A stretch of 41,003 bases of DNA from positions 1 through 41,003 of IMG/VR virus record IMGVR_UViG_3300045988_002471. One strand, written 5' to 3'. Under the pieces are notes generated by a model. That model did not search any database. It was not told the DNA's origin and saw nothing but the letters and a program-made list of their open reading frames with translations. Positions 13,533 through 21,511 of the stretch are shown one piece after another. Both the position numbers and the translations under genes were made by a program. Every line of letters begins with the position of its first letter. Within the stretch, counting starts at the first letter, position 1. Source of the DNA: a virus. Lineage: Duplodnaviria; Heunggongvirae; Uroviricota; Caudoviricetes.

Positions 13533-15805
13533 TATTTAAACCCCGGCGCATTTCTTGTGGCTTTGCGGGCCTTGCTAATCTTACTGTTGCTGTTCTGCAA
13601 AGATGCAGCAACTTGCTCTTCTATGATGATACGCAGACGGCCTTCATCATCTTGCTCAGTAGATACGTTGCCAATTTGAGAACTCGTGTTGTTTACGATA
13701 GTAACATTAGACGGGCCGGAAGAAGACCCGTTTTGCCCCATAATTTCTTTCATCTGCTGCGCGGTGCGAACACGCGATGCACCCGCGGGCATGATAACTT
13801 CTGGTTTACCGCGTTCAGCGATAGTAGAAGCCTGCCCGGCGGATAACTGCCCACCCTGTTCACGCGCAGACCTGATAGCGGAAACCTGCGCCATACCCGC
13901 CCCAACGGCAGCGGCGGCCGCTACAGGCGCTAAGAACGGGCCGACTACAGGGATAGCCGCCGTTGACTTATACGCCTCAATAGCCGCGGTGTACGTGGCG
14001 ATGGTGGCCTGTACGATAGCGAATGCCTTGTACGCACCAGAAGCCTCCCCCAACGCAGACCCGATGTTTGAGGCCATGTTACCAAAGGCGGTTGCCGTTG
14101 CGTCGGCGCGCTTCGTAGCATACTGCTCGTTGATGGCGTTAAGCGCGGCCTGGTACTGTTTCTCATTAATAAGCCCCTGCTCACGGTACTTATCCGCTAC
14201 CGCCAGTTTCTGCTGTTCCTGGATGTCGAGAAGCTCAAGCTCAGTAGCGTTCTGACCCATAATCTGAGCCATGAAGTCGTCACCTTTCTGCTGCTTTTCC
14301 TGGGCTTCTTTCTGGCGTTTATCCAGTTCATCTTGCCGTTTTTGCCCGGCTTCGAGGACGATAGCTGTTTTAGCCTGTTCGTATTCTTTCAGCGACAGCG
14401 CGCCCTGGCTGTAGAACTCTTTTGCCTTAGCCAGTTTCTGCTGTTCCTGCGCGTCGATAGCCTTTAACTCATCGTTGTTCTGGCGAGCCAAAGTGTCGAG
14501 GTAATCCTGCGCCTGATTCCGCAATTGTTCTGCTTTCTTGGCGGCGGCTTTTGCTGCTTTATCGTCGGTGTTTCCTGCCCCGCCAGTTCCGCCCTTTTTA
14601 TTAACAAGACTGGCTAAGTCAATTTCTTGCTTCTTGCGCTCGTCGTACTGCTTGCGCTGTTCCTCAATTTCTTTCTTACGCTGCTTAGACCTGTTGGTAA
14701 TGGCCTGTGATTCTGCCTCAGCGCGTTTTATGCTAGCGGCGTACGCGGCGTCGGCCTCTGCGGTCAGGTTTTTAAATGTTAGCGCCGCCGTTTTGCTCGG
14801 GTCAAACACGTCGGCAAGGGTCTGCCCTAACGCTACAGCGTAATCGTCGATGCGCTGGAACCACGCAATAACCTCGTGAAATGTCTGCTGGATGTCCGGC
14901 AACCACTCACGGATGGCATCCGGTATAGTCCCCAGCGAGTCAGACATATCAACGGATTTGTCATCGGTATCGAATGCCAGGTCATTCAAGGCGTCGGAAA
15001 TAAACTTGAATGACTCATTGAACAGCGCCACCCAATCCTGGAGCGTGGCGGCTATCTCATTAGACGCGATGGCGTCGGTAAGCGCCGTGATAGCGTCTTC
15101 CGCTGTGGCCGCTTGCTCACCTACGGCGCCGCCAAAACCAGACCGCGCCACCGCAAGAACAAGACCGTCGAAGGAGTCGGCGAGGCTCGATAACTGGCCG
15201 TCTAGCGTCTTAGAGCGCGTCTCCATCGCCCCGGCAAAATCGGTGTTGCCGATATTCAGGAGGTATTTCTGAATCTCTTCGGAGTTCTTCTTAACCGTGG
15301 TCGTTACGCCGCGGAACGTGAACGAAACTGTATCTGCCTGTTGCGACGACTTGATGCCGAACTCTTTTAAGCGCTCAAATTCAAATGTACTGGCGTCGGC
15401 AACTGCCTCAATCATCTGATTAAGGTCTTTACCCATAGCCGCCGCGGTGTTGCCGTAGGAGATTAATGCCTCTTTGCTGGGGTTCAGACCGAGCGCAACG
15501 AGCTTGGTAAACCCCTCTACCGCCTGATTGAGACCGTACGGGGTCTCTTTTGCGAACTGTTGCAGGACGCTGAAAGCCTTAGCCGCGTTCTCGGCGCTCC
15601 CGGTCATCGTGATGAGGCTGGAGTTCAGCTTATCGAAGTTTCGCTGGGAATCCACCAGCGCGCTGAACACCTGCTTAGCGGTTTCCAGACTGACAACGGC
15701 GGCGGCGGCGGCCCCCGCCGCCTTGGTAAGCCCGTTCAGTTGTGATGTGGTTTTATCGACGCCGGTCGATGATACTCGTACTATCAAGCTAGCGGTATCA
15801 GCCAT
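13532..15805 (-). CDS. Tail tape measure protein
   Basis: About 757 aa, Ala/Gln-rich coiled-coil composition; follows chaperone pair; start set to ATG 15805 after RBS GAAGG (track start is TTG). Confidence 0.8.
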   Translation of the reverse strand: MADTASLIVRVSSTGVDKTTSQLNGLTKAAGAAAAAVVSLETAKQVFSALVDSQRNFDKLNSSLITMTGSAENAAKAFSVLQQFAKETPYGLNQAVEGFTKLVALGLNPSKEALISYGNTAAAMGKDLNQMIEAVADASTFEFERLKEFGIKSSQQADTVSFTFRGVTTTVKKNSEEIQKYLLNIGNTDFAGAMETRSKTLDGQLSSLADSFDGLVLAVARSGFGGAVGEQAATAEDAITALTDAIASNEIAATLQDWVALFNESFKFISDALNDLAFDTDDKSVDMSDSLGTIPDAIREWLPDIQQTFHEVIAWFQRIDDYAVALGQTLADVFDPSKTAALTFKNLTAEADAAYAASIKRAEAESQAITNRSKQRKKEIEEQRKQYDERKKQEIDLASLVNKKGGTGGAGNTDDKAAKAAAKKAEQLRNQAQDYLDTLARQNNDELKAIDAQEQQKLAKAKEFYSQGALSLKEYEQAKTAIVLEAGQKRQDELDKRQKEAQEKQQKGDDFMAQIMGQNATELELLDIQEQQKLAVADKYREQGLINEKQYQAALNAINEQYATKRADATATAFGNMASNIGSALGEASGAYKAFAIVQATIATYTAAIEAYKSTAAIPVVGPFLAPVAAAAAVGAGMAQVSAIRSAREQGGQLSAGQASTIAERGKPEVIMPAGASRVRTAQQMKEIMGQNGSSSGPSNVTIVNNTSSQIGNVSTEQDDEGRLRIIIEEQVAASLQNSNSKISKARKATRNAPGFK

Positions 15806-16130
15806 GATTTCTACCTTCAAAGATTGCTTCTAAGCCCATGATAATGTCTATCTCGAACAGGCTAAGCTGTTTTTGCGTAACATCGAGATAGGCTTTCAGG
15901 TCTTGCCACGTAACAGATTCTCTTGCAAACAATACTACAGCGTCCTCGCGCACGTGTCGCGTAAACTTAATGTCGCAATACGTCTCAAAGGTGGATATAA
16001 AAAGGGGCGGGCATTCTGGCCCGCCCCGTCGCGCTGCACGTTTTTTCTTATCGATTACACCCATCGCGATAAGCGCCTGTTCGTGTCCGTCGGCGATAGA
16101 ATCAAACTCTCTGATTTTATGCTTATCCAC
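15798..16130 (-). CDS. Tail assembly chaperone T-like frame, probably expressed as a G-T fusion by -1 frameshift
   Basis: Frame is open from 16181 with no ATG; -1 relative to the upstream gene; GGAAAAG at 16166..16172. Confidence 0.45.
   Translation of the reverse strand: MDKHKIREFDSIADGHEQALIAMGVIDKKKRAARRGGPECPPLFISTFETYCDIKFTRHVREDAVVLFARESVTWQDLKAYLDVTQKQLSLFEIDIIMGLEAIFEGRNHG
16004..16035 (-). terminator. Intragenic terminator-like hairpin (GGGGCGGGC-N6-GCCCGCCCC then TTTTTATAT on minus strand) inside the T-like frame
   Basis: Perfect 9-bp GC stem at 16004..16027 with a U-run on the coding strand. Confidence 0.45.
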
Positions 16131-16162
16131 AAACTCGTAGGTGGCGAACCTGTACAGCGCGT

Positions 16163-16579
16163 CTACTTTTCCTGTAATACTTTACGCTCGGCGTTATGGA
16201 ACGCCGCCACCTGTGTGCCTAATGCCTTGAACTGGTCCAGCAATTTGTTAAATGCTTCTTTAGAGAAAGGCTCATCAAAGCTCCAGCCGTTTACGACTTC
16301 TGCCGCGAGTTGCCGGTTGAGGTCTTCCGCCAGTTCGTTAATAGCCAGGTTATATTCAGTATAGTCGCCGGATTCTTTGGCGGCTTTTTCCAGTTCTTCG
16401 AAACGCGCCAACCCGCGACGGTACGCAATAATGAAAGCACGCCCCGCTTTAACGGCGACATCCGCATCGGGACTTACAACGTTAAGCCATTCACCGGAGT
16501 CTTCGCCGTTTGGCAGGAGAATCGGCATCTTCTTGCCCGCCAGTGCTTTCTCTTCGAAATAAAAATCAGAAAGTTTCAT
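16163..16579 (-). CDS. Tail assembly chaperone (lambda G-like)
   Basis: 138 aa, acidic; directly upstream of T-like frame and tape measure. Confidence 0.55.
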   Translation of the reverse strand: MKLSDFYFEEKALAGKKMPILLPNGEDSGEWLNVVSPDADVAVKAGRAFIIAYRRGLARFEELEKAAKESGDYTEYNLAINELAEDLNRQLAAEVVNGWSFDEPFSKEAFNKLLDQFKALGTQVAAFHNAERKVLQEK

Positions 16580-16687
16580 TCTTTAATCCTTTGGTTAAGA
16601 GGTTACAGGTTAACGATAAATGCGCCAGACGGGAACCACCCGCTTTTCGTGTGCGACACTAGGCGCAAACTTATTCTATCACATTAC

Positions 16688-16716
16688 TTGCACACCCCAA
16701 TATAATAGGGTACTAT
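16688..16716 (+). promoter_or_regulatory. Promoter TTGCAC-N17-TACTAT with operator-like palindrome (16703..16720) driving the plus-strand island
   Basis: -35 at 16688..16693, -10 at 16711..16716; the ~38-bp block recurs at 34662..34700 and 35663..35700. Confidence 0.55.
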
Positions 16717-16746
16717 TCACTTACACCAACAATGAAGGGGTTTAAA

Positions 16747-16938
16747 ATGTCCAGTTTACCAGTTTCCTTAATTCTGTTTGCACTGCTCGCTTATTTCGCG
16801 CCTTTCCTGGTTGCGTACTTCCGTAACCATAAAGCGAAGTTAGCGATATTCATGGCTAATCTGTTTCTTGGTTGGGTTCTGCTGCCGTGGGTATTTATTT
16901 TAATCTGGGCTTGCAACTCGAATGTCAAAGAGAAGTGA
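16747..16938 (+). CDS. Small two-TM membrane protein, superinfection-immunity (Imm)-like
   Basis: MSSLPVSLILFALLAYFAPFLVAYF...NLFLGWVLLPWVFILIWACN; start at ATG 16747 after RBS AAGGGG; Imm assignment is from memory of the family motif. Confidence 0.45.
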   Translation: MSSLPVSLILFALLAYFAPFLVAYFRNHKAKLAIFMANLFLGWVLLPWVFILIWACNSNVKEK

Positions 16939-16976
16939 GCTAGTATAGGACAAATCCTAAACACGAGGAAATAGGC

Positions 16977-18107
16977 ATGGCCCAGAAGAAAATAACCGAC
17001 GAACAGTTACAGGAAGAATTGAACGCTGGGATGAAGAATATCGACATTGCTCGTAAATACGGCATCTCAGACCGCGTAATTCGTATCCGTAAAGCGAAGC
17101 TGGCTAAGAAAGGCGTAGGTCACGGGCGCGACGTTAGTCACCTTGTGCCGGACGGCTACAAGATTAAAGGAACGTCGTCACTGGTGGACGAGTTCGGCAA
17201 CACTAAGTTGCAATGGGTTAAAACCGACACTGACGCCGAACGTCAGGTTGAGTTGATGAAGGCCGTAATCGAGGGCATGAAGTCGGAGATTACCCCCGTT
17301 GCTCCTGTTAAAGCCGTTCGCGCCAAACGAGACGACAAGCTACTCAACCTTTACACTGTGTCTGATTTCCATCTCGGTATGCTGGCCTGGGCTGACGAGA
17401 GCGGCGACGACTGGGACATGAAGATTGCGGAAGACCTGTTCTCCCGCTGGTTCGACGCAGCGTTCCAGAAAGCACCGGATGCAGGAACAGGAGTTATTAA
17501 TCTGCTGGGCGACCTTGCGCATTTTGATAGTCTGGACGCCGTTACACCTGCCAGTGGTCATGTTCTTGACGCTGACACCCGCTATCAGAAACTTGTACGC
17601 TACATGATTCGTATGGTCCGCCGTGTCATTGATATGGCTCTCGTTAAACATAAAAATGTTCGCTTGCTTATCGTGCAAGGTAACCACGACGAAAGCGGAA
17701 TGATTTGGTTGGCTGAGATGTTCAGTACGCTATACGACAACGAGCCGCGTGTGTTCGTCGATACGTCGCCGGATGTTTACAAGATGGTGCAACACGGCAA
17801 AACTACGCTGTTCTTTCACCACGGCCATAAAGCACGATTCGATGCTATCGAACCAGTTATGATCGCCAAGTTCCGCAAAGCGTTCGGCGAGAGTGTTTAC
17901 AGCTACGCCCATATAGGACACCTGCACCATCAGAAGATTGTAGAAAGCCGTAACATGATTGTTGAACAACACCGCACCCTGGCGGCTAAAGACGCCTACG
18001 CCTCGCGCGGCGGATGGATGTCGGGCCGCAGTGCAAACGTAATTACTTATAGTGCCGAATATGGCGAGGTCGCACGTTTAACTATTTCACCGGAGATGCT
18101 TGGATGA
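16977..18107 (+). CDS. Calcineurin-like metallophosphoesterase with N-terminal HTH-like domain
   Basis: Phosphoesterase motifs DFHLG, GDLAHFD, GNHDE, HHGH, GHLHH; N-terminal about 60 aa resemble a small HTH. Confidence 0.7.
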   Translation: MAQKKITDEQLQEELNAGMKNIDIARKYGISDRVIRIRKAKLAKKGVGHGRDVSHLVPDGYKIKGTSSLVDEFGNTKLQWVKTDTDAERQVELMKAVIEGMKSEITPVAPVKAVRAKRDDKLLNLYTVSDFHLGMLAWADESGDDWDMKIAEDLFSRWFDAAFQKAPDAGTGVINLLGDLAHFDSLDAVTPASGHVLDADTRYQKLVRYMIRMVRRVIDMALVKHKNVRLLIVQGNHDESGMIWLAEMFSTLYDNEPRVFVDTSPDVYKMVQHGKTTLFFHHGHKARFDAIEPVMIAKFRKAFGESVYSYAHIGHLHHQKIVESRNMIVEQHRTLAAKDAYASRGGWMSGRSANVITYSAEYGEVARLTISPEMLG

Positions 18108-18589
18108 AAGATATTGTGATTTTCGATTTAGACGGGACATTGGCAGATGGTACTCATCGTTTACACCTGCTGCCGAAAGATAACTACGGCGAAACCTGGG
18201 CGTGGAAACCATTTAACATGGCGTGCAAAGACGATGCACCCATTAAAGATAACATCGAACTGTGTAACGCCATTAATCGTCGCTATGCCGTTATTATCTT
18301 AACAGGCCGTAGTGATGACGCGGAAAAAGAAACCAGAATGTGGTTGCAGCGCCACCGCGTCGAATTTTATCAGTTAATCATGCGCAGCAAACACGACAAC
18401 AGAAAAGACATCGTAATTAAAGAAGAGGTGTTGCGTGCTATTGGGCCGGAGAGAATCTTGTGTGCATTCGACGACTCTCCAGCGGTAATAAAGCATTTCC
18501 GCGAACTCGGCATAACCACTCACGCAGTTACTGAATACGACTGTAACGGGAACTCTACACACTTAAAACCACATGGGAGTGATAAATAA
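18104..18589 (+). CDS. HAD-family phosphatase, T4 polynucleotide kinase 3'-phosphatase-domain-like
   Basis: VIFDLDGTLA (DxDGT), IILTGRS, K, AFDDSP motifs; resemblance to T4 Pnk phosphatase domain recalled from memory. Confidence 0.65.
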   Translation: MKDIVIFDLDGTLADGTHRLHLLPKDNYGETWAWKPFNMACKDDAPIKDNIELCNAINRRYAVIILTGRSDDAEKETRMWLQRHRVEFYQLIMRSKHDNRKDIVIKEEVLRAIGPERILCAFDDSPAVIKHFRELGITTHAVTEYDCNGNSTHLKPHGSDK

Positions 18590-19143
18590 TGGCTAAGGTA
18601 ATTATTCTTAATGGTCCTGCGGGCTGCGGGAAAGACACACTTGCTAGGGCGCTGGTAGAAATGGGCTTTGCGAAGGGTGTCGCCAGTTTCAAGAATCCGA
18701 TGTTCAATATTGCTATGGCTGCGTTAGGCCAGGATGCTTACCGCGAGTTTCTCGACGGCTACGACGACCGGGCGCGGAAAGAAAAGCCAGAGGGTTTCCT
18801 TAACGGGTTGTCTCGGCGTCAGTTCATGATTGCCATTTCCGAGCAATTCATTAAACCGGTATTCGGTGATGATTATTTCGGCAAGTATCTTGCCGGAAAC
18901 TTGCCCGACGGCAACGAAGTTTTTGTAGTGTCCGACGGTGGATTCGCCAGCGAAGTAGCCCCTATCGTTGCCGCGGGGCATGATGTGAGAATCGTCCGCT
19001 TGCACAGAGACGGCCATACGTTTGAAGGGGACAGCCGCGGTTACCTGTACGATATTGATGGTGTAAAAGATTACGACACCTACATCATACCGGGTGACGT
19101 TAAATCGAACGTTATAGACATTGCTTTAAAATTAGGTTTGTAA
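18589..19143 (+). CDS. P-loop kinase (dNMP-kinase-like or polynucleotide-kinase-like)
   Basis: Walker A GPAGCGKDT; about 184 aa; start overlaps upstream stop. Confidence 0.6.
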   Translation: MAKVIILNGPAGCGKDTLARALVEMGFAKGVASFKNPMFNIAMAALGQDAYREFLDGYDDRARKEKPEGFLNGLSRRQFMIAISEQFIKPVFGDDYFGKYLAGNLPDGNEVFVVSDGGFASEVAPIVAAGHDVRIVRLHRDGHTFEGDSRGYLYDIDGVKDYDTYIIPGDVKSNVIDIALKLGL

Positions 19144-19180
19144 GAAAAAAAAAAAGGCCCCGAAAGGGGCCTTAGTTTTA
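19144..19180. terminator. Bidirectional rho-independent terminator (A-run, AAGGCCCC-gaaa-GGGGCCTT, T-run)
   Basis: Perfect stem flanked by A12 and T-run between convergent genes. Confidence 0.75.
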
Positions 19181-20350
19181 TGCGTAGGTGATACGTTGAA
19201 TTACGATAGACGACTGGTACTGATTGCCGGTAGCCTGGCCTTCAATGGACTGAGTGATTGACTCAGGCCCACCAATCTCAGGTGTAACCGCCGTAAGCTC
19301 TGCACGTTTCAAACTGAAAGACATAGCCCCGTTTACCCCTGCCAGAATAGAGTTAATCTCTACCTGCTGCTCGTTGATAAACTTCTGAATCATCGCCATG
19401 TCGTACAGCTTGCCAGAGATAGAGAATGTGTTAGCTGCGCGTCCACGTTCGACGAACGCCACGCTACTGTTACCGAGTTCGAACTGCGCGGAAGCTCCGT
19501 TGTCGTTGGTGATGGTGAGAGTATCGCAACGCAACGGCGTGGAGCCATCGAACACCGACACATCTACCGACGAGAACGGCTCATCGGTGAACGTAACCTG
19601 AGAGAAATCAGAGCCAGACGGCGACGCGGTAAGAATCTCCTGACTCAGGCCGATGAACGGGAAGCTGCCGGTGACCATGGCGTTAACCGCCTGCTCTACG
19701 GTAAAGCCAGAGATTTCCACACCTTTGGTCAGCATGTACGCGTCCGGGGTACCACACTGGCCCTTGAACCACGTCAGGATGGAGAACGTCTTACACGCGT
19801 TACCGGTTTCCAGCTTGTCGCCAGTTTTTGCGTCAGTGGTTACTGTCTCTGCTGTCAGCGTGTGCTGAATACCTGCGCCCGTAACTACCAGAGCGGAAAC
19901 CGCGGTCACGATAAACGGTTTTGCGTTGTCGCCGGTTAAGTCGGTGAACGCAATCAGGTCGCCAACTTCAACGCCGTCGGTAATAAAGCTGCCATCGGCA
20001 CGGGTGAACGTCTTGCCTGCGGGTGCAACGGTAATCGATAACCCTGACAGAGAAACCCCGGACTGCCACGTAGAGCCTAAAGCGCCCGCCAGCCAGTCGT
20101 CCTGGCTTTTCGAGCTAAGCTCAATTGCGTACTCCCCGCTAACCTGTTTGTTGCCGGTGCGGATGGAGGTAGTTTCACGGCTGCCGTCCAGTTCGTTGGA
20201 TGTCAGTGTGTCGCGGGTAATGGCAGGAACGCCACCCGTGTTACGCAACGGCGACCATACCGGGTTAGTCGGTGTTACACCCGGGGTCGCTTCCGCCACA
20301 TAGAATTGCGCCGTATTCGCGCCCTTAAAAGGAGTTGTAGCCATATTCAC
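19178..20350 (-). CDS. Major tail protein (putative)
   Basis: 390 aa; directly downstream of tail-completion genes; ATGA coupling. Confidence 0.55.
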   Translation of the reverse strand: MNMATTPFKGANTAQFYVAEATPGVTPTNPVWSPLRNTGGVPAITRDTLTSNELDGSRETTSIRTGNKQVSGEYAIELSSKSQDDWLAGALGSTWQSGVSLSGLSITVAPAGKTFTRADGSFITDGVEVGDLIAFTDLTGDNAKPFIVTAVSALVVTGAGIQHTLTAETVTTDAKTGDKLETGNACKTFSILTWFKGQCGTPDAYMLTKGVEISGFTVEQAVNAMVTGSFPFIGLSQEILTASPSGSDFSQVTFTDEPFSSVDVSVFDGSTPLRCDTLTITNDNGASAQFELGNSSVAFVERGRAANTFSISGKLYDMAMIQKFINEQQVEINSILAGVNGAMSFSLKRAELTAVTPEIGGPESITQSIEGQATGNQYQSSIVIQRITYA

Positions 20351-20760
20351 AGCCTCTTGGTGAATGCAATAAAGTTAATTGACAATGGTCGTTTGGCCCA
20401 TCCGTTTTCTACAATCAGCGGCCCCAGGCTAACCGATTGAACCTCGGCGCAGATGTCGTTACGTGAAAATGACTTACCTGCTTTAAACGCCGTGTTAAGT
20501 AAGTCTGCCATTTTATTGATCGGCGCGCTACCTTTCACCGATGCGTAGTTAATGTTGACCTGATAGATGCCCGCGCGTTGTTCCGTGAAGAACAAATCTG
20601 CTTGCTCCGTATCCGCCAGCAACATGTAACTTGCCAGATACGGCGTATCGGTTGACGTCGGCGCGTCGATGTTTTCAAGCGCGACCTTAATGCCGTTGGT
20701 GGTTCCGAAGGCTACCAGCGGCACATCGAACGCTTTCGTTAAGTCCTCAAAGTAGCCCAT
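20347..20760 (-). CDS. Tail terminator / tail completion protein (putative)
   Basis: 137 aa; position just upstream of the major tail gene. Confidence 0.45.
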   Translation of the reverse strand: MGYFEDLTKAFDVPLVAFGTTNGIKVALENIDAPTSTDTPYLASYMLLADTEQADLFFTEQRAGIYQVNINYASVKGSAPINKMADLLNTAFKAGKSFSRNDICAEVQSVSLGPLIVENGWAKRPLSINFIAFTKRL

Positions 20761-21155
20761 TATTTCACCTTGTTGGCTTCTTCGTTAATGAGTTGCTGGA
20801 AACGCGATATATTAGTTCTTACCATACCTTGTGGTGCCTGTCGCGACCAGCCATACTCCAGCCGTTGTGCATACGGCAGATTATTTGTCAGCGTGAACTC
20901 GCGCCAGTCTGTAGCTTTAAGCACGAAACTTGTAGCGTTTCCGGTTGCCGTGTTTCCTGATTTATCCGTAGCGTCTGTAATTCCGGAAGCGGGAGTGCCG
21001 CCAGACGCCATCCAGTTCATACGAAAGCGACCTGTATCTACCGGACTTGCCTTTATGATAGCGGAAAACAGTTTGATAGACACCTGACGCATCACCTTCT
21101 CGGGGTTCTTCTTCGCCTTTTCCACGAACTTAGAGACATCAAGCGCGAAACTCAT
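20760..21155 (-). CDS. Head-tail joining protein, HK97 gp10-like (putative)
   Basis: 131 aa with PVDTGRFRMNW motif recalled for this family. Confidence 0.45.
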   Translation of the reverse strand: MSFALDVSKFVEKAKKNPEKVMRQVSIKLFSAIIKASPVDTGRFRMNWMASGGTPASGITDATDKSGNTATGNATSFVLKATDWREFTLTNNLPYAQRLEYGWSRQAPQGMVRTNISRFQQLINEEANKVK

Positions 21156-21511
21156 TTTCTCACCTGAATAAAATACGCCACGACATCATCGTTAACCATC
21201 TTCTTCTCGATAGCTACGACAGACCATTGCTCGCCGCCGAATTGTACCTTGTCTTCCATTTTTGGCACGACACTGCAATCCGCTTTAACAACCATGTCGC
21301 CAGCCTGAATCGTCGTACCATTAACCAGTCCCACGTTAACCGGAACCGGAACGGCCTTCAACGGCAGCACTTCATCGTCAGGCCATACGTACTCACCGAG
21401 AACTTCATCCCACACTTTCGATCCAGCACGAACCAGAGATACCGTGCTCCCGAATTTGGTTAGCAGTCGTGTACCAACGCCTTGCATACGTTTACTGAAA
21501 GCAGTGCTCAT
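21152..21511 (-). CDS. Head-tail adaptor/connector protein (putative)
   Basis: Start set to MSTAFSK (ATG 21511, ATGA overlap with upstream stop). Confidence 0.45.
   Translation of the reverse strand: MSTAFSKRMQGVGTRLLTKFGSTVSLVRAGSKVWDEVLGEYVWPDDEVLPLKAVPVPVNVGLVNGTTIQAGDMVVKADCSVVPKMEDKVQFGGEQWSVVAIEKKMVNDDVVAYFIQVRK

Follow-up and report, generated by a model that had tools for sequence, protein, structure and literature searches.

A phosphatase gene coupled to a predicted deoxynucleoside monophosphate kinase gene in a Kagunavirus, and its probable place in nucleotide supply

Layout of the locus

In a viral DNA of 41,003 nucleotides (IMG/VR record IMGVR_UViG_3300045988_002471, positions 1 to 41,003; this whole stretch is called the window) we examined two overlapping genes at 18104-19143, which encode a haloacid dehalogenase (HAD) phosphatase and a P-loop kinase, together with the metallophosphoesterase (MPE) gene directly upstream. 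The source of the window was found to be a Kagunavirus genome (Guernseyvirinae, K1G-like siphovirus). The region 16900-19200 shows 96% identity to Escherichia phage vB_EcoS_fTaEco01, and 220 phage records were matched. The features of the locus are as follows.

16678..16706, plus strand: sigma-70-like promoter candidate (ATCACA-17-TATAAT, 10/12) at the head of the island, found by consensus scan only
16732..16938, plus strand: small membrane protein of the superinfection-immunity (Imm) family, island gene 1 (Pfam Imm_superinfect, 9.3e-13; a relative is annotated alike)
16977..18107, plus strand: 376-aa protein with an N-terminal helix-turn-helix (HTH) and a calcineurin-like MPE domain, putative nuclease (phrog_704 and motifs)
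18104..18589, plus strand: 161-aa stand-alone HAD phosphatase of the T4 Pnk phosphatase clade, HAD_PNKP (Pfam PF25109, phrog_415, BLASTP)
18589..19143, plus strand: 184-aa P-loop deoxynucleoside monophosphate (dNMP) kinase, DNK family, gp1-like fold, ortholog of R1DNK of phage Rao1 (sequence comparison, fold match)
19154..19173, no strand assigned: likely bidirectional intrinsic terminator, a GC-rich hairpin flanked by an A-run and, at its other end, by a T-rich tail (scan match on both strands)

A preliminary description, drawn from the letters of the sequence, had presented the phosphatase and the kinase as separate, translationally coupled genes with the phosphatase first. This arrangement was confirmed. 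The two open reading frames (ORFs) lie where they had been placed and overlap in TAATG, the last A of the TAA stop codon being the first letter of the kinase ATG; a GGGAG Shine-Dalgarno sequence is found 9 nt upstream. The end of the MPE ORF likewise overlaps the HAD start by ATGA. The HAD/kinase overlap is identical in 15 of 15 Kagunavirus loci in IMG/VR and is not universal, the spacing in Rao1 being 50 bp. Judged by profile matches and hundreds of full-length homologs, the HAD and kinase ORFs are real genes and not chance motifs. From the promoter-like site, the three overlapping genes and the terminator, the MPE, HAD and kinase genes are predicted to form one plus-strand operon. The hairpin at 19154-19173 separates the island from the convergent tail-tube gene. 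NCBIfam gave no match above cutoff for the MPE, HAD or kinase proteins, and PADLOC returned zero hits.

The kinase, the phosphatase and the metallophosphoesterase

The kinase shares 51% identity over 172 residues with R1DNK (Rao1 gp58; E = 2e-62), and K15 stands at the same position. Because of this identity and the conserved lysine, it is assigned to a characterised dNMP-kinase family. R1DNK efficiently phosphorylates dAMP, dGMP and dCMP in vitro, and dTMP too; its K15A mutant is inactive, and deletion of gp58 lowers dATP (bioRxiv 10.1101/2024.12.20.629578). The window kinase is very probably a broad-specificity enzyme of the DNK family that would convert dNMPs to deoxynucleoside diphosphates (dNDPs). 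R1DNK is also the phage factor that triggers Kongming (KomABC) immunity (bioRxiv 10.1101/2024.12.20.629578), and the Kongming-triggering kinases of vB_KpnS-VAC2 and KarlJaspers share the motifs of the window kinase family.

The P-loop of the kinase reads GPAGCGKDT (K15, D16, T17), with G14, K15 and D16 invariant among 31 homologs, and phrog_139 matches the protein at 3e-46. Its best structural match is T4 gp1 dNMP kinase, indicating a gp1-like nucleoside monophosphate kinase fold. In profile comparisons the kinase aligned with T4-type gp1 along its whole length, at low stringency (E = 3e-5), and with T4-type PseT over 29 P-loop columns only; hidden Markov model searches gave no direct link between the window kinase and T4 gp1. 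A low-confidence hhalign alignment (probability 74%) pairs kinase R61, R77, M80, D116, E122, R140 and D148 with gp1 R68, R132, M135, D175, E181, R197 and D204, respectively. These tentative equivalents are mostly invariant or nearly so across the family. In the same alignment gp1 R11, K37 and R177 have no equivalent, and kinase G12, F39 and G118 stand there. The roles of the gp1 residues are given in Table 2 of PMC10653934.

Besides T4 gp1 (PDB 1DEK), the wider phage DNK family includes T5 Dnk and P. putida PP_1964. Unlike the 241-aa T4 gp1, the window kinase has 184 aa and lacks an insertion of ~40 residues. The T4 enzyme acts on dGMP, dTMP and hm-dCMP, whereas the window kinase, by its homology to R1DNK, probably accepts all four dNMPs. 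For the family of the window kinase, 6629 members were found among 1.84 billion cluster representatives, mostly stand-alone proteins of 180-200 aa. By these comparisons the protein is classified as a dNMP kinase, not a Pnk-type kinase. The preliminary description had read the two genes as a split polynucleotide kinase and had also remarked that GKDT resembles T4 gp1. The resemblance to gp1 proved to be the right reading, on the structural match and the identity to R1DNK. The split polynucleotide kinase was not supported, as only the P-loop of the kinase aligns with T4 PseT. What stands of the Pnk-pair interpretation is the phosphatase half, which is Pnk-like; the kinase half falls to the dNMP kinases.

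The HAD protein carries the motifs FDLDGTLA (D8, D10, T12) and FDDSP (D123, D124). Pfam HAD_PNKP (PF25109) matches it at 9.6e-20 (71.6 bits against a gathering cutoff of 27.6; profile positions 2-140 of 143) and phrog_415 at 2e-66. Among solved structures the sequence matches are Pnkp1 (4xrp, from a bacterial RNA-repair complex) and T4 Pnk (1ltq). BLASTP aligned residues 5-146 with residues 163-301 of T4-type PseT (1e-11) with the catalytic residues in register: D8, D10, T67, K106 and D124 pair with T4 Asp165, Asp167, Ser211, Lys258 and Asp278. HAD residues R19, R69, D102 and D123 pair with PseT R176, R213, D254 and D277, which we take to be essential in T4 Pnkp. The aligned catalytic-site residues are invariant or nearly so among 20 homologs. 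In T4 Pnkp, Asp165 is the nucleophile, Asp167 the acid-base catalyst and Asp278 a Mg ligand, and the enzyme also hydrolyses 3'-dTMP (PMC3592404). A tblastn search found the family in 2986 phage records, including T4-like pseT genes at 27-31% identity. The protein thus very probably belongs to the T4 Pnk phosphatase clade, as had been proposed from its motifs. The label 'polynucleotide kinase' commonly given to this gene misleads, since a kinase domain is absent from its product.

A second, stand-alone HAD_PNKP gene, 41% identical to the window HAD, was found in Escherichia phage vB_Eco_SAP (L083:3498-3974), a T4-like phage with its own pseT. This gene overlaps the end of nrdB (translationally coupled) and is followed, a few genes later, by denA-like and RNA ligase genes. 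In Drulisvirus KpV2883 (~44 kb) the HAD gene is located within an exonuclease-endonuclease cluster. Pbunavirus Epa14 gp68 (L093:2477-3493; 338 aa), annotated '3'-phosphatase 5'-polynucleotide kinase', has an N-terminal HAD_PNKP domain, and its gene is flanked by thyX and by a 3'-5' exonuclease/DNA polymerase pair. It was considered as a HAD-kinase fusion and rejected; its C-terminal 180 aa have no dNMP-kinase family or Pfam match.

The MPE gene product matches phrog_704, 'DNA repair exonuclease', at 2.2e-167, and its Pfam Metallophos matches are below the cutoffs (21.4 vs 27 and 19.0 vs 21.5). Five metal-binding motifs are present: D130-x-H132, G178-D179, G235-N236-H237 (GNHD), H282/H284 and G314-H315-x-H317. 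The motifs DxH, GD, GNHD, H and GHxH are invariant in nine orthologs down to 41% identity. The sequences listed by the MPE homolog search were all at least 97% identical. The N-terminus (window 16977-17120) contains an HTH segment whose GerE and FixJ-like matches are weak. A 142-kb Salmonella phage encodes, shortly before its kinase homolog, a DEDD exonuclease with a similar HTH at the N-terminus (L090:2813-2885), and the same type of DNA-binding head is thus seen on two different (putative) nucleases.

Two candidates for the window-type MPE were rejected: the 'DNA polymerase exonuclease subunit' of the 142-kb Salmonella phage, which is this DEDD (RNase T-like) exonuclease, and an Aeromonas 'phosphoesterase', which belongs to another MPE family. 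Directly upstream of the kinase gene, of the HAD gene, or of both, we also found a second MPE type of ~324 aa (L034, L080, L038, L088, L117-L133), which is unrelated to the first and in some members has an HTH-like N-terminal segment. From its position it looks like a non-orthologous replacement of cassette gene 1.

The cassette in other phages

The order MPE-HAD-kinase was found in Kagunavirus, Webervirus KLPPOU149 (gp07-09), Braunvirinae SU57, Rao1 and AAS23-like contigs; the three-gene cassette is common to Rao1 and phages of three unrelated families. In the Autographiviridae, an Ahphunavirus has the same order but carries the second MPE type in the first position. In Rao1 the cassette is gp56-gp57-gp58, whose MPE and HAD proteins are 45% and 49% identical to those of the window; the Kongming study leaves gp56 and gp57 undiscussed. 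Rao1 differs in being a T1-like siphovirus with the cassette between its replication and lysis genes, as in T1-like phages, whereas that of the window lies in the tail block, an unusual site for nucleotide-metabolism genes. Here the Imm gene and the three cassette genes make up a plus-strand island (16678-19173) amid minus-strand tail genes, bounded by the minus-strand tail assembly chaperone gene and, at the other end, by the tail tube and tail terminator genes.

We surveyed 80 IMG/VR loci around the kinase (37 lineages at 85% identity) and 80 loci around the HAD gene (17 lineages; partners were sought within 4 kb). The HAD gene was upstream of the kinase on the same strand in 10 of the 37 kinase lineages and downstream or on the opposite strand in none. 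Seven of these ten also have a type-1 MPE and one a type-2 MPE. In two more kinase lineages a type-2 MPE lies directly before the kinase and there is no HAD gene. Viewed from the HAD gene, the kinase is found downstream in 10 of the 17 lineages.

A natural fusion protein, P0367 (403 aa), was found on three contigs. It joins HAD_PNKP (residues 3-142) to the kinase (210-394) through a linker of ~65 residues in the order of the gene pair, phosphatase first, and its gene is followed by an MPE gene whose product is 69% identical to the window MPE. One example is:

L091:6001-8500, Logan ERR14657200 contig (60.8 kb): fusion P0367

Beyond the MPE gene on this contig, a PAPS-reductase-like gene precedes one for a Dam methylase. 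A 373-aa kinase-dUTPase fusion was found in a replication module (L092:6001-7122, Logan SRR18474655 contig, 53.7 kb); its neighbours are primase-helicase, DNA polymerase A, 5'-3' exonuclease and ligase-like genes.

Recurrent neighbours of the kinase in the HAD-less lineages are a T4 RNase H-like 5'-3' exonuclease (16/27), RuvC (10/27), ribonucleotide reductase subunits and glycosyltransferases. Glycosyltransferase genes lie no more than 3 kb from the kinase in 12 of these 27 lineages (e.g., L049:7423-8382 and L044:2877-3695), and in such phages the kinase may serve a modified-nucleotide (DNA glycosylation) pathway. In the 142-kb Salmonella phage the gene order is HTH-DEDD exonuclease, a short hypothetical ORF, the kinase homolog and an NT5C-type 5'(3')-deoxyribonucleotidase; thyA and ribonucleotide reductase genes are nearby.

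Elsewhere in the tail region, two coding sequences of fTaEco01, one for the tail assembly chaperone and one for a tail protein, are annotated as joined from two pieces (programmed frameshift products). Their first parts correspond to ORFs 16163-16579 and 20760-21155 of the window (regions ~15400-16600 and ~20760-21500, minus strand).

Proposed role and alternatives

We consider it rather probable that the cassette turns DNA breakdown products into replication precursors, that is, that it is an ordinary nucleotide-supply module; the chances that the MPE, HAD and kinase proteins act in one salvage pathway are about even. In such a pathway the MPE would release 5'-dNMPs. The HAD phosphatase would remove 3'-phosphates from blocked ends, mononucleotides and oligonucleotides, by analogy with the in vitro range of T4 Pnkp. 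Conversion of dNMPs to dNDPs would fall to the kinase, as was shown for its 51%-identical ortholog R1DNK, and host Ndk would convert dNDPs to deoxynucleoside triphosphates. We count in favour of salvage the kinase-dUTPase fusion, the ribonucleotide reductase and exonuclease neighbours, the conserved gene order, P0367 and the lack of a ligase in the genome. Phages T1 and TLS break down the DNA of their host and use its nucleotides again, which fits this reading, as does the rise of dAMP during Rao1 infection (bioRxiv 10.1101/2024.12.20.629578). The same gene order in Drexlerviridae was proposed to serve in 'enhancing nucleotide supply' in the KanT1 paper (PMC13164509, 2026). The block described there, 'DNA repair exonuclease - PNK - dNMP kinase', was reported as annotation only and for Drexlerviridae only, whereas the window cassette is from Guernseyvirinae and lies among tail genes.

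Several observations weigh against salvage. The MPE and HAD steps, two of the three in the pathway, are predictions. T4 Pnkp and Pnkp1, the characterised HAD relatives found in this analysis, act in nucleic-acid end repair, not salvage. The 'nuclease' label of the MPE is a putative one, taken from the PHROG family name and motif resemblance; neither sequence nor profile searches of PDB gave a significant match to the MPE domain, and a structure model built from an alignment 97-99% identical throughout reached a pLDDT (predicted local distance difference test) of 42.3. Deletion of the Rao1 kinase carried no laboratory fitness cost (bioRxiv 10.1101/2024.12.20.629578). Degradation of host DNA by Kagunavirus is hinted at only indirectly, in a preprint, by the sensitivity of Guernseyvirinae to the dinucleotide-sensing ApeA. 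The partnership of HAD and kinase is frequent, not obligatory: 27 of the 37 kinase lineages have no HAD gene, and 7 of the 17 HAD lineages have no kinase within the 4 kb searched. These seven are on contigs of ~44 kb (one short contig apart), usually with a type-2 MPE nearby.

The HAD protein might instead be a mononucleotide phosphatase, Dmp-like or 3'-nucleotidase-like, that trims or balances dNMP pools and possibly blunts Kongming as T5 Dmp does, which we regard as unlikely. T5 Dmp, a 5'-deoxyribonucleotidase, is a divergent HAD enzyme sharing the N-terminal DLDGT...HR motif with the window protein. As in the window, a HAD-type phosphatase and a dNMP kinase (T5 Dnk) occur in one genome and are linked via dNMP pools; genes for Dmp are found alongside DNK genes and block Kongming (bioRxiv 10.1101/2024.12.20.629578). 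The NT5C-type gene after the kinase homolog of the Salmonella phage, the coupling of a stand-alone HAD gene to nrdB in a T4-like phage that has its own pseT, and the action of T4 Pnkp on 3'-dTMP also point this way. However, the similarity to T5 Dmp is confined to 48 residues (4-51; pairwise E = 1e-4), and T5 Dmp has no Pfam match. The T5 genes, unlike those of the window, are not adjacent, and expression of dmp, a gene of the first-injected region, precedes the entry of dnk into the cell (bioRxiv 10.1101/2024.12.20.629578). Rao1 is Kongming-sensitive even though it has the orthologous HAD protein (gp57), which gives no protection, while T5 Dmp protects it in trans. A 5'-nucleotidase fused to a dNMP kinase, as P0367 would then be, amounts to a futile cycle. 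It is still less probable, in our estimate, that the genes are independent accessory genes that travel together in the same early/accessory region and share no pathway. The HAD and kinase genes do each occur without the other, and T1-like phages separate them by 0.6-1.5 kb. Rao1 escape mutations fall in the gp58 coding sequence or its promoter region (bioRxiv 10.1101/2024.12.20.629578), and the Rao1 kinase therefore has its own promoter. This is outweighed by the order and strand kept across unrelated phage families down to ~40% identity, by the natural fusion P0367 in the same order, and by the MPE, which remains beside the pair even where the order is rearranged.

Two related proposals keep the pair in nucleic-acid repair. 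The pair could be a functional Pnkp analogue for end healing, in which the HAD protein strips 3'- or 2',3'-cyclic phosphates and the kinase adds phosphate to polynucleotides that end in 5'-OH, so that broken phage or host nucleic acids (e.g., after attack by a defence nuclease) are resealed by host ligase; a non-homologous kinase would have replaced the Pnk kinase domain. The HAD protein clearly falls in the Pnk phosphatase clade, retains all catalytic residues and is homologous to the phosphatase domain of T4 Pnkp/PseT and bacterial Pnkp1. Phosphatase and kinase are coupled here and fused in P0367, as in Pnkp enzymes, and the bacterial Pnkp kinase is likewise accompanied by an MPE. T4 Pnkp, on the other hand, is one polypeptide with the kinase N-terminal, whereas the window has two ORFs with the phosphatase gene first, and a gp1-like dNMP kinase in place of a Pnk-type kinase domain; the Kagunavirus genome encodes no RNA or DNA ligase to act as their partner and complete end repair. 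The kinase fold, the characterised ortholog and the fusion partners make end healing very unlikely. Slightly more doubtful again is the proposal that the HAD and kinase proteins act as one end-healing enzyme (a complex here, the fusion P0367 elsewhere), whose dNMP-kinase fold displaced the Pnk kinase domain and acts on both dNMPs and 5'-OH DNA or RNA ends. If this last reading were true, the phage would possess a ligase-independent repair or processing system that relies on host ligases.

The two genes are already annotated: in GenBank relatives they bear the labels 'putative polynucleotide kinase/phosphatase' and 'putative deoxynucleotide kinase'. The kinase family is known from experiments, and a published description of the gene order exists for Drexlerviridae. 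For annotation, the neighbouring gene now called 'ATP-binding protein', 'ATPase' or 'hypothetical' would be better named dNMP kinase. The kinase is also relevant to phage therapy, since the activity of its family is what Kongming detects. A putative T4-Pnk-type 3'-phosphatase and an MPE travel with this kinase in several phage families, and the phosphatase and kinase are fused once. If, as in the nucleotide-supply reading that we prefer, the HAD protein acts on DNA breakdown products, the Pnk phosphatase clade would gain a physiological role outside nucleic-acid repair.

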